Source of the DNA: Escherichia coli
GTDB taxonomy: Bacteria > Pseudomonadota > Gammaproteobacteria > Enterobacterales > Enterobacteriaceae
Length of the DNA stretch: 64,000 nt
Assembly (NCBI RefSeq): GCF_009931435.1
Contig: NZ_CP043414.1
Reading direction: 5' to 3' (one strand)
The position numbers and the translations under genes are program-made. Positions 36,042-40,004 of this stretch are shown piece after piece (position 1 is the first letter of the stretch; every line of letters starts with the position of its first letter). The notes under the pieces are model-generated. The model searched no databases. It saw nothing but the letters and a program-made list of their open reading frames with translations, and was not told where the DNA came from.

Positions 36042-38843
36042 TTATTCGACGTTCAGCGCGTCATTAACCAGATCTTGTTGCTGTTTCTGGTGAACGGACA
36101 TATACCCTACCGCCGGAGAGGCGGAGGCCGGGCGGCCTGCATAACGCAGAGAAGCCCCAAACGGAATCACTTCACGGAAATGATGCTGGCTGCAGTACCA
36201 TGCGCCCTGGTTGAGCGGCTCTTCCTGGCACCAGACAAAATCCTTGACGTGAGCAAACTGCTGCAACACTTCCTGCATCGCTTTATGCGGGAACGGGTAG
36301 AGTTGCTCGATACGCACAATGGCGACATCGTGTTGATTGTTCTTACGGCGTTGTTCCAACAGGTCGTAATAAACCTTACCAGAACACATCACTACGCGCT
36401 TCACACCCTTAGGATCAAGCTCGTCGATTTCACCAATGGCAGGCAGGAAGGTGCCGTTCGCCAGTTCTTCGAGGCTGGAAACCGCCAGCGGATGACGCAG
36501 CAGGGATTTCGGCGACATCACCACCAGCGGACGACGCATCCCGCGCAGCGCCTGACGACGCAGCATATGGTAAACCTGTGCCGGGGTAGACGGTACGCAC
36601 ACCTGCATGTTTTGTTCAGCACAAAGTTGCAGATAACGTTCCAGACGCGCGGAGGAGTGCTCCGGCCCCTGCCCTTCATACCCGTGCGGCAGCAGCATTA
36701 CCAGACCACACATCCGGCCCCATTTCTGTTCGCCAGAGGAGATGAACTGGTCGATAACCACCTGCGCACCGTTAGCGAAGTCACCAAACTGCGCTTCCCA
36801 GATGGTCAGCGTACGCGGCTCTGCGGTGGCATAACCGTATTCAAACGCCAGCACTGCTTCTTCAGACAGTACGGAGTCCCAGACGCGGAACGCGCCCTGG
36901 CCATTATGGATATGTTGCAGCGGCGTGTAAGTGGAACCGTTGGACTGGTTGTGGATCACCGCATGGCGATGGAAGAAGGTACCGCGACCGGAGTCTTCAC
37001 CCGACAGGCGGACCGGAATGCCTTCATCAACCAGCGTGGCGTAAGCGAGGTTTTCCGCGCCGCCCCAGTCGAACAGTTTCTCACCGGCAGCCATTGCCTG
37101 GCGATCGCCATAAATCTTGGCAACGCGAGACTGCATTTCAACCGCTTCCGGCACCGTACTGATACGTTTCGCCAGTTCCTGCAGGCGCTTCATCTCAACT
37201 TTGTTCGGGTACTCTTCGTCCCATTCGTGGTTGAGGTACGGCGACCAGGTGAAAGAGTGCATGTTCATCGGACGCCACTCTGCTACCACGCAATCGCCAG
37301 CATCCAGCGCATCGCGGTACAGGTTAACCATCTCGGTGGCATCTTCCAGCGTCGCGACTTTTTCCTGCTCCAGCTTGTCAGCGTAGATTTTGCGCGGCGT
37401 CGGATGTTTTTTGATTTTCTGATACATCAGCGGCTGAGTTGCACTCGGCTCGTCGGCTTCGTTGTGGCCGTGACGGCGGTAGCACACCAGGTCGATGAAG
37501 ACATCACGTTTAAAGGTGTTACGGAAATCGAGCGCCAGACGGGTCACAAAGGCAACGGCTTCCGGATCATCCGCATTAACGTGGAAAATCGGTGCCTGTA
37601 CCATCTTGCCGATATCAGTACAGTACGGCGTAGAACGGGCATCCAGCGGGTTAGAGGTAGTGAAACCGACCTGGTTGTTGATAACGATACGTACCGTACC
37701 GCCAACTTCATAACCACGCGCTTTCGACATGTTCAGGGTTTCCTGAACCACGCCCTGCCCGGTCACTGCGGCATCACCGTGGATGGTGATTGGCAGCACT
37801 TTGTTGCTGCTCGGCTCATCGAGTCTGTCCAGACGGGCGCGAACAGAACCGATAACTACCGGGCTTACAATCTCAAGGTGAGACGGGTTAAACGCCAGCG
37901 CCAGGTGAACCAGGCCGCCATCGGTCTGGAAGTCAGACGAGAAGCCCATGTGGTATTTCACGTCGCCCGTGCCGAGGTGTTCTTTATGTTTACCGGCAAA
38001 TTCGTCGAACAAATCTTGCGGTTTTTTACCCAGCACGTTAACCAGCACGTTCAGACGACCACGGTGCGCCATCCCAAGAACCACTTCACGGGTGCCGCTG
38101 TTGCCAGCATGGCGGATCATCTCTTTAAGCATCGGGATTAACGCATCACCGCCTTCCAGCGAGAAGCGTTTTGCGCCAGGGAATTTTGCGCCGAGGTAAC
38201 GTTCAAGGCCTTCAGCGGCGGTCAGTTCGCTTAAGAAGCGTTTTTTCTCTTCGCTATTGAAAGTCGCGCGACCAGACTCGATACGCTGTTGGATCCAGCG
38301 TTTTTCTTCGGTGCTGGTAATGTGCATGTACTCGGCACCAATCGGGCCGCAGTAGGTTTGCTTGAGGGCTTCCAGCAGCTCGCCGAGTTTCATGGTTTCT
38401 TTGCCGCTGGCAAATGAACCGACGTTGAAGGTCTCCTGGAAGTCTGCTTCGGTCAGATCGTGGAAAGACGGATCCAGATCGGCCACTTTATCTTGCTGCC
38501 ACAGTCCCAGCGGATCGAGATTCGCATGCTGGTGACCGCGGAAGCGGTATGCGTTAATGAGCTGCAGGACTTTAACCTGCTTCACATTGGTGTCAGGGTC
38601 GGAGATCGTTGAAGAGTAACGTGAAGCGTCTTTCGCCAGGCGGCGGAAATATTCACGCGTTTGAGAGTGGAATTGATCCGGTTTGACTCCCGTACCAGGT
38701 AACTGCTGGAACGTCGAACGCCAGTTAGCGTCAACCGAGTCAGGATCGGTTAAGAAGTCTTCATAGAGCTGTTCTATCCAGCTCTGGTTTGCGCCAGAGA
38801 GGTAAGAAGAGTCCAACCAGGCTTTCAAAGCGCTGTTCTGCAT
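36042..38843 (-). CDS. sucA: 2-Oxoglutarate dehydrogenase E1 component
   Basis: 933 aa, [38 protein letters not shown]. Confidence 0.97.
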
Positions 38844-39002
38844 CGTGATCCCTTAAGCATCTTTTTTATGCTTACTTCGCCGTGGATACTACCACGCACA
38901 GTGATGTGCGTGCCGGGGTTCACTTGCGAGCTCTTGTCTACGTAGTGGCTCGCGAAGGAACCTTTAAAAACTGTCTTAGTGTCAGGGGCAGTTTTTAAAG
39001 AT

Positions 39003-39285
39003 TTCCTGCATTTCTTTTGTAGGCCGGATAACGCATTCACGCTGCATCCGGCGCTGTTTGCCTGATGCGACGCTTGCGCGTCTTATCAGGCCTACGATTC
39101 CTGCATTTCTTTTGTAGGCCGGATAACGCATTCACGCCGCATCCGGCCCTGGTTGCCTGATGCGACGCTTGCGCGTCTTATCAAGCCTACGATTTCTGCA
39201 TTTCTTTTGTAGGCCGGATAAGGCGTTCACGCCGCATCCGGCACTGGTTGCCTGATGCGACGCTTGTGCGTCTTATCAGGCCTGG
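39003..39285. repeat. Cluster of three tandem BIME/REP units in the sdhB-sucA intergenic region
   Basis: Three near-identical ~95-bp units, each with two REP palindromes (taggccggataa...gcatccggc and gcctgatgcgacgcttgcgcgtcttatcaggcctac). Confidence 0.85.
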
Positions 39286-39287
39286 GT

Positions 39288-40004
39288 TTACGCATTACGC
39301 TGCAACAACATCGACTTGATATGGCCGATGGCGCGCGTCGGGTTCAGCCCCTTCGGACATACACTGACGCAGTTCATGATGCTGTGACAGCGGAATACGC
39401 TGAATGCATCGCTCAAACCGTCGAGGCGGCTGTCAGTCTCGGTATCACGGCTATCGATCAGGAAACGATATGCCGCTAACAAGCCTGCCGGGCCGATAAA
39501 CTTATCGGGATTCCACCAGAAAGACGGACAAGAGGTTGAACAACATGCGCAGAGAATACATTCATACAGCCCGTCGATTTTTTCGCGCTGCTCTGGCATC
39601 TGTAAATGCTCACGAGCTGGCGGATTTTGTCCATTATTCAACAGGTAAGGCTTAATTTTCTCATATTGCGCATAGAATTGTCCCATGTCTACCACCAAAT
39701 CGCGGATCACTGGTAAACCTGGCAGCGGGCGAATCACAATCTTCTTGCCCGGCTGGTTGAGTGCCGAAATCGGGGTAATACAGGCCAGACCATTCTTGCC
39801 GTTCATGTTCAGACCGTCGGAACCGCACACACCTTCACGGCAGGAGCGACGGAACGACAGGCTGGGATCTTTCTCTTTCAACTGGATAAGCGCATCCAGC
39901 AGCATCATGTCGCGACCTTCTTCCGCTTCCAGGGTGTAATCCTGCATACGCGGAGCATCATCAACATCCGGGTTATAGCGATAAATTGAAAACTCGAGTC
40001 TCAT
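39288..40004 (-). CDS. sdhB: Succinate dehydrogenase iron-sulfur subunit
   Basis: 238 aa, MRLEFSIYRYNPDVDDAPRMQDYTLEA.., Cys clusters. Confidence 0.97.
   Translation of the reverse strand: MRLEFSIYRYNPDVDDAPRMQDYTLEAEEGRDMMLLDALIQLKEKDPSLSFRRSCREGVCGSDGLNMNGKNGLACITPISALNQPGKKIVIRPLPGLPVIRDLVVDMGQFYAQYEKIKPYLLNNGQNPPAREHLQMPEQREKIDGLYECILCACCSTSCPSFWWNPDKFIGPAGLLAAYRFLIDSRDTETDSRLDGLSDAFSVFRCHSIMNCVSVCPKGLNPTRAIGHIKSMLLQRNA

Follow-up and report, generated by a model that had tools for sequence, protein, structure and literature searches.

Two inverted repeats in the sucA leader of Escherichia coli are probably stem-loops of the messenger RNA

Introduction

The sucA gene belongs to the 2-oxoglutarate node, where carbon and nitrogen metabolism branch. 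In the leader of this gene, RNase III processing and regulation by a nitrogen-responsive small RNA, GlnZ, are known to converge. Previous work on this leader described three RNase III sites, a GlnZ target and Nac binding (PMC9731577; PMC5371410; bioRxiv 10.1101/2022.04.01.486790). The RNase III sites lie somewhere upstream of the GlnZ site in the sdhB-sucA intergenic region (PMC9731577). Through its seed, UUGCCGUGGAAA, GlnZ base-pairs with the mRNA ahead of the sucA ribosome-binding site and represses translation together with Hfq; this regulation needs a purine-rich segment of 15 nt near the ribosome-binding site (PMC9731577). The level of SucA drops in an rnc mutant (PMC9731577), deletion of rnc abolishes the repression of SucA by GlnZ (bioRxiv 10.1101/2022.04.01.486790), and an RNase III-dependent coverage peak was found at position 758515 (PMC5371410).

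The leaders of pnp, rnc and adhE are described cases in which cleavage of a structured 5' leader alters the downstream gene. Upstream of sucA itself, Rfam lists the sucA and sucA-II motifs, which are orphan cis-regulatory candidates of Burkholderiales and Pseudomonas. Two families of intergenic repeats, REP/BIME and ERIC/IRU, also need to be compared with the locus studied here. We analysed the sdhB-sucA junction in a stretch of 64,000 nt of E. coli DNA (hereafter the window), where a first-pass annotation made from the sequence alone had pointed to two perfect inverted repeats in the sucA leader. We refer to the repeat nearest to sucA as IR1 and to the more distant one as IR2.

Comparison with Described Systems

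The leader in the window is the same locus as the characterised sucA 5' UTR of E. coli and Salmonella. The 185 nt closest to sucA are identical in a K-12-like strain, which differs solely in BIME copy number, with fewer units. Between the 3' end of IR1 and the published GlnZ target there are about 6 nt. The published accounts that we compared do not mention IR1 or IR2 as such, nor covariation across the family, a variable insert between the IR2 arms or a predicted helix formed with the Shine-Dalgarno region; Cunningham and Guest (1998) may already show the hairpins. The novelty of the present work is the comparative structure, which refines a known regulatory region and is incremental, without a new mechanism. 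It renders testable the drop of SucA in the rnc mutant, the need for RNase III in GlnZ repression and the need for the purine-rich segment. IR1 and IR2 are conserved hairpins of a bacterial mRNA leader that has no Rfam family, and the structure of the leader is a candidate for a family of that type.

With the pnp, rnc and adhE leaders, the sucA leader shares a structured 5' leader whose cleavage alters the downstream gene, as SucA depends on rnc (PMC9731577). It differs from them in that IR2 is a helix of only 17 bp with one bulge, that the literature compared describes no cleavage within IR2 and that the adjacent BIME hairpins are longer. The likeness to the sucA and sucA-II motifs is that of a multi-hairpin 5' leader of sucA in which the ribosome-binding site is predicted to be drawn into a helix. 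Sequence and architecture are nevertheless unrelated, an Rfam match is lacking and the known regulator here is a trans-acting sRNA. REP/BIME elements are palindromic and intergenic like IR1 and IR2, adjoin them and likewise fold into hairpins of the same RNA. In contrast to REP elements, IR1 and IR2 are single-copy, IR2 is AU-rich and neither is matched by the REP-derived Rfam model; moreover, the number of REP elements varies between strains whereas IR1 and IR2 are constant. As for ERIC/IRU, about 25 other genera or species have an ERIC-like element within the loop of IR2, whereas the window is without ERIC, and IR2 is the host hairpin rather than the mobile element.

Layout of the sdhB-sucA Junction

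According to the ORF table and the translations, both genes are encoded on the minus strand, sucA at 36042-38843 and sdhB at 39288-40004. From 5' to 3' the transcript runs from the sdhB stop codon through three BIME units, IR2 and IR1 to the sucA AUG, which leaves a leader of about 165 nt before sucA on the polycistronic sdhCDAB-sucABCD mRNA. The spacer between sdhB and sucA measures 444 nt here and 300 nt in K-12. Three tandem BIME units of 95 nt (REP pairs; 39003-39287, minus strand), recognised as repeat family D1 and by naRNA4/REP matches, occupy the part between the sdhB stop codon and IR2 and are 89-100% identical to each other. Every unit terminates in AAAGAAATGCAGGAA, so that the point of duplication falls exactly on the 5' flank of IR2. 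On the plus strand, antisense to the operon, each REP pair scores above the gathering threshold of the naRNA4 (CssrE) model (39022-39282). These are generic REP matches and give no evidence of a specific sRNA gene at this place. A mechanical ORF of 71 codons over the leader (38825-39040, minus strand) was rejected because the leader alignment is rich in indels whose lengths are no multiple of three.

Both repeats that the first-pass annotation had claimed are present in the sequence, at most 160 nt away from the sucA start codon (ATG; minus strand, 38843-38841). They are indeed distinct from the REP units, since Rfam naRNA4/REP matches are restricted to the stretch given above. The position of the repeats upstream of the BIME cluster, in contrast, is true in plus-strand coordinates only; on the transcript they are located downstream, between the BIME units and sucA. 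IR1 consists of 8-bp arms, CACGCACA (38893-38900) and TGTGCGTG (38905-38912), with a spacer of 4 nt, and its start, which had been set at 38894, needs to be moved by one nucleotide to 38893. IR2 has the 12-bp arms described earlier, CTTTAAAAACTG (38962-38973) and CAGTTTTTAAAG (38989-39000), but these are separated by 15 nt instead of 16.

In a first-order Markov model, perfect 12-bp arms with loops of 3-20 nt are expected 0.05 times per 64 kb, or 1.25e-4 times per 160 nt. The window contains three such loci, and chance origin is excluded for IR2. Perfect 8-bp arms with loops of 3-8 nt were found at 14 loci in 64 kb versus 6.3 +/- 2.6 expected (0.016 expected per 160 nt), and IR1 by itself is only mildly unusual as a palindrome. 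Conservation removes the residual doubt over either repeat being a product of chance.

Conservation in Escherichia coli and Other Genera

Among 5426 complete E. coli genomes, 5425 have the 167-nt leader and 5423 have a match to a 57-nt query for IR2, at a median of one place per genome. The leader is at least 99% identical to that of the window in 4260 genomes and 80-90% identical in 1114 genomes. The minority allele, present for example in E. coli strain 131, resembles the leader of E. albertii and has a different sequence in hairpin P2 (see section "Predicted Structure of the Leader RNA") that still folds. IR1 is retained in this second allele as 9-bp arms around a loop of 10 nt. The allele thus combines a P2 of the E. 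albertii/Citrobacter type with a longer IR1 loop. E. coli thus carries two leader alleles, and the features of the minority allele suggest that it arose by recombination as an allelic replacement.

A scan for the SucA N-terminus with one genome per species provided 80 Enterobacteriaceae loci, in which the sdhB-sucA spacer ranges from 198 to 660 nt. Both repeats are present in about 76 of these 80 other loci. The two arms of IR2, TYTAAAAACYG and CRGTTTYTAAAGGTTCC, were both found in 76/80 loci (77/81 leaders examined). The check for conservation across enterobacterial sucA leaders that the first-pass annotation had proposed therefore has a clear outcome: the repeats are kept in related species, and a refutation by lack of conservation fails clearly. 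Few gaps are needed to align the leaders between the 3' arm of IR2 and the AUG. The distance between the IR2 arms, on the other hand, varies from loops of 9 nt to loops of 169 nt, and in about 25 loci the IR2 loop carries an insert of 136-145 nt that matches the core of the ERIC repeat. Insertion within a loop leaves an RNA stem undisturbed, and the variable loop of IR2 thus fits an RNA hairpin. ERIC/IRU-like inserts of about 130-145 nt were seen at two fixed points of the leader, which are the IR2 loop and the position just after the GlnZ site. The second of these, between the GlnZ site and hairpin P4, is found in some Citrobacter, and because of such a second ERIC-like insert the GlnZ site of Salmonella Typhimurium is far from the start codon.

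Five outgroup leaders were compared as well: two Erwinia-like leaders, that of Ewingella and two from loci with SucA N-termini that are 74% and 71% identical. All five have a hairpin before AGGUUCC, which in four of them is closed by GGAA/UUCC, and the inner stems differ. One of the five shows a change from U-A to C-G at an IR2 position where some Enterobacteriaceae show C·A. In Ewingella and in the 74% locus, a hairpin with a sequence unlike IR1 precedes a GlnZ-type site, CYACGGCG. The Erwinia-like leaders are without the CYACGGCG site and have a different hairpin at that position.

Predicted Structure of the Leader RNA

A segment of 181 nt ahead of and across the start codon folds with a z-score of -3.8 relative to shuffled sequences, into IR2, P2, IR1, P4 and a helix of the Shine-Dalgarno region with an upstream strand (anti-SD helix). 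For pair counts we aligned 73 distinct Enterobacteriaceae leaders, trimmed the interiors of long loops and excluded three Citrobacter loci in which ERIC is inserted a second time. Over the whole structure 96% of the cells are paired, versus 26-46% in controls in which the pairing partners were shifted by 1-3 columns. Covariation scored 0.139 versus 0.095 +/- 0.003 in shuffles, and none of 500 shuffles attained the score of the real alignment. RNAalifold independently recovered the same helices, including the anti-SD helix, and the mean pair probability in the partition function of 76-77 native leaders is 1.00 for IR2, 0.90 for IR1, 0.98 for P4 and 0.94 for the anti-SD helix.

IR1 forms the hairpin CACGCACA-UCAC-UGUGCGUG (38893-38912, minus strand; -69 to -50 from the sucA AUG), which is seen in the sequence and in covariation. 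Taken alone it is thermodynamically ordinary (z = -0.8). In the 73 leaders none of its 8 pairs is invariant, 6 of the 8 have changed on both sides, and 92.5% of the cells are paired. G·U pairs on the sucA-sense strand amount to about 95 cells versus about 11 cells of the C·A type. This bias on the sense strand, together with the covariation, indicates that IR1 is a hairpin of the sense mRNA and not a DNA operator. IR1 is kept as a structured RNA by compensatory change beyond that of the controls.

IR2 is longer than its perfect arms. On the mRNA its 5' strand is GGAAAUCUUUAAAAACUG (38989-39006, minus strand; -163 to -146), which includes the 12-nt arm at 38989-39000 and is conserved as GGAAAYCTYTAAAAACYG in 77 loci. 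The 3' strand is CAGUUUUUAAAGGUUCC (38957-38973, minus strand; -130 to -114), which includes the arm at 38962-38973 and within which AAAGGTTCC is invariant in the 73-sequence alignment. Between the two strands lies the 15-nt loop CCCCUGACACUAAGA (38974-38988, minus strand), a stretch whose length in other genera ranges between 9 and 169 nt. GGAA/UUCC lengthens IR2 to an AU-rich helix of 17 bp with one bulged A, and one further pair is found past a 1x1 mismatch. This extension, P2, P4 and the predicted long-range helix between GUGAACCC and the Shine-Dalgarno region were absent from the first-pass annotation.

In contrast to IR1, where none of the pairs is invariant, 10 of the 17 IR2 pairs are invariant in the 73 leaders; three vary on one side, one has changed on both sides (in one sequence) and three depart from pairing as C·A mismatch only. 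Near-absent covariation of IR2 within the Enterobacteriaceae would also fit a constraint on sequence instead of one on pairing. Since distant leaders keep the hairpin with different inner stems, we read IR2 as a maintained hairpin, the outer part of which appears to be constrained in sequence too. Three mismatches recur in the core of IR2 and never co-occur in the 77 loci: 20 loci have none of them, 23, 20 and 14 loci have exactly one, and none has two. Mutually exclusive mismatches suggest a limit on the weakening that the IR2 helix can tolerate. All recurrent departures (alignment columns 15/70, 18/67 and 23/62) are C·A or A·C and have arisen via U-to-C transitions. On the opposite strand such cells would be G·U, but neither assignment to one strand nor an A+·C wobble accounts for the pattern.

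These C·A departures would pair as G·U in an antisense RNA, and one could read IR2 as a hairpin of the antisense strand, as there are 53 cells of this kind versus 29 sense G·U cells. The consensus scan nevertheless found no plus-strand promoter that could produce such an RNA, and the neighbouring IR1 clearly reads on the sense strand. The antisense reading of IR2 was set aside.

P2 is the hairpin GCGAGC...GCUCGC (38926-38953, minus strand), which exists in two alternative sequence forms that both fold. Its pair counts understate pairing, because MAFFT misaligns the 3' arm of the alternative form. P4 is the hairpin AAGCAU-loop-AUGCUU (38855-38873, minus strand) with an invariant stem, immediately 5' of the Shine-Dalgarno sequence AAGGGA (38849-38854). 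The 5' strand of the anti-SD helix, GUGAACCC (38916-38923, minus strand), is predicted from the fold, 99.4% paired and nearly invariant. Its partner GGGAUCAC (38845-38852, minus strand) overlaps the Shine-Dalgarno sequence and precedes the start codon (38841-38843); these elements are invariant in 73 leaders. In the 73 leaders the 7 pairs of the anti-SD helix and the 6 pairs of P4 are essentially invariant, and being invariant, both are without covariation support. The GUGAACCC/GGGAUCAC helix may act as a translational gate on sucA, which the published accounts compared do not mention.

Rfam release 15 gave no match to any family within 38844-39006 at E <= 10; the cmscan covered 38300-39800 and gave REP-derived matches and two chance-level matches elsewhere, and nothing else. 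A scan of 38600-39500 found no intrinsic terminator on either strand; the stem of IR2 is AU-rich and lacks a trailing U run, and IR1 is followed by GUAGUAUCC.

Relation to GlnZ and RNase III

The GlnZ target UCCACGGCG (38878-38886, minus strand; -43 to -35) is complementary to the seed of GlnZ and conserved in the alignment. It adjoins IR1 but lies outside it, and neither IR1 nor IR2 is the target. Pairing of CGUGG in the IR1 3' arm with CCACG in the GlnZ site was rejected as a conserved feature, as many genera have CGUUG or CGUCG instead.

By calibration on neighbouring entries of the same table, the RNase III-dependent peak at 758515 was placed at -191. In K-12 this position falls in a truncated REP hairpin that lies outside IR2, 28 nt farther upstream. 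A classical RNase III substrate has about two helical turns, about 20-22 bp, and 17 bp is within the range of minimal substrates. With 17 bp and one bulge the IR2 helix is shorter than the classical two-turn substrate. The BIME hairpins are longer than IR2 and would be at least as good candidates for RNase III.

Proposed Organisation of the Leader

We consider it likely that both repeats are structural RNA stem-loops of the known sucA 5' UTR, two of its four or five hairpins. Conservation, covariation and predicted folds rest on computation here; from these we infer the roles of the individual hairpins, the helix that RNase III may cut and the sequestration of the Shine-Dalgarno sequence. From 5' to 3' the leader would comprise IR2, P2 and a junction domain closed by the GUGAACCC/GGGAUCAC helix, and this domain would hold IR1, the GlnZ target UCCACGGCG in single-stranded form, and P4 beside the ribosome-binding site. 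IR1 may be a scaffold that keeps the GlnZ/Hfq site exposed and that shapes a domain which limits the access of ribosomes to sucA. IR1, P4 and the anti-SD helix would then come together at a junction in which the GlnZ/Hfq site stays unpaired while a weak helix holds the ribosome-binding site. Three observations lead us to propose such a junction domain: the predicted fold, the compensatory changes in IR1, and a closing helix that is invariant and has a high predicted probability.

IR2 would most likely be a helix for processing or stability, either as one of the RNase III substrates described for this region or as a 5' protective stem for the processed sucABCD mRNA. We suggest this role because IR2 is the sole long helix in the conserved core, because it tolerates large structured inserts in its loop and because RNase III acts upstream of the GlnZ site.

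Alternative Interpretations

The first-pass annotation left open whether the repeats form regulatory RNA structure or binding sites. RNA structure is supported by conservation at the structural level, but a binding site is not, as the sequence of IR1 and the spacing of IR2 vary. Action at the DNA level could mean that IR1 is an operator or spacer of a weak internal suc promoter and that IR2 is a palindromic protein site, such as one for IHF or Nac. An internal promoter between sdhB and sucA has been reported (PMC6393394), and Nac binds the sucA promoter (PMC9731577). By eye, an extended -10-like element, TGgTAGTAT (38886-38894, minus strand), can be seen directly after IR1, where it abuts the 3' arm. 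This candidate for part of the internal suc promoter contains TAGTWT, which the leader alignment shows to be conserved. IHF is said to repress the internal suc promoter, a finding attributed to work of Cunningham and Guest from 1998. In addition, IR2 is kept by sequence rather than by covariation, as would be expected of a protein site. Nevertheless, IR1 is free in sequence and keeps its pairing, and the sense G·U cells counted above, about 95, are mismatches in the symmetry of duplex DNA. The half-sites of IR2 are 9-169 nt apart among genera, which is unfit for one dimer that binds both. The IHF consensus WATCAANNNNTTR had no match with two or fewer mismatches at IR1 or IR2, and the sole intergenic matches lie in a BIME unit. 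The consensus scan of 38600-39500 for sigma-70 promoters found no site, and the -10-like hexamer decays to TAGTTA in many genera. The link to an internal suc promoter that had been suggested earlier consists of the element seen by eye, which the scan did not recover. All in all we regard action of the repeats at the DNA level as unlikely, although the DNA-level and RNA readings are mutually compatible and not exclusive. If TGgTAGTAT is used, transcripts would start inside the GlnZ site, without IR1 and without the anti-SD strand. A sigma-54 promoter, CGGCAC-N5-TCAC, was also noticed by eye and rejected, as its -12 element is poor and not conserved.

Other proteobacteria have structured orphan motifs, the sucA motifs, ahead of their sucA genes. 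The leader of about 165 nt could be their enterobacterial counterpart, an unannotated, family-wide cis-regulatory RNA that senses a metabolite of the 2-oxoglutarate node or a protein beyond GlnZ, but we hold this to be quite improbable. In such an RNA the covarying stems (IR1, P2 and the inner part of IR2) would hold invariant junctions, and a helix would sequester the Shine-Dalgarno sequence. Similarly improbable is a riboswitch-like RNA, in which the whole leader senses a ligand or protein, variable stems hold invariant effector-binding junctions and these control the helix that sequesters the Shine-Dalgarno sequence. Covarying stems do occur together with invariant unpaired or junction segments (GUGAACCCYGG, UAGUWUCCACGGCG and AAAGGUUCCUU), the predicted anti-SD helix has a high probability in 76 leaders, and the orphan motifs of other proteobacteria offer a parallel. 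GlnZ pairing, the ribosome-binding site and the purine-rich segment related to Hfq, however, already account for much of the invariant sequence (PMC9731577). Furthermore, the leader matches no Rfam family at E <= 10 and tolerates insertions of about 130-140 nt at two places, and there is no experimental hint of a ligand.

Lastly, that IR2 is a functionless relic, made of the leftover ends or the preferred target of a mobile repeat, and IR1 a chance palindrome, is very improbable: about 25 loci do carry an ERIC-like insert of 136-145 nt exactly in the IR2 loop and perfect 8-bp repeats are not rare (14 in the window), but the IR2 arms are equally conserved in genera with loops of 9-15 nt and no insert, IR2 is single-copy per genome with mutually exclusive mismatches, and in distant genera the hairpin persists by compensatory change, while IR1 covaries. 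A rare natural variant of the locus exists in E. coli strain B2.3, in which the IR2 5' arm is deleted and REP directly abuts CTAAGACAGTTTTTAAAGG.
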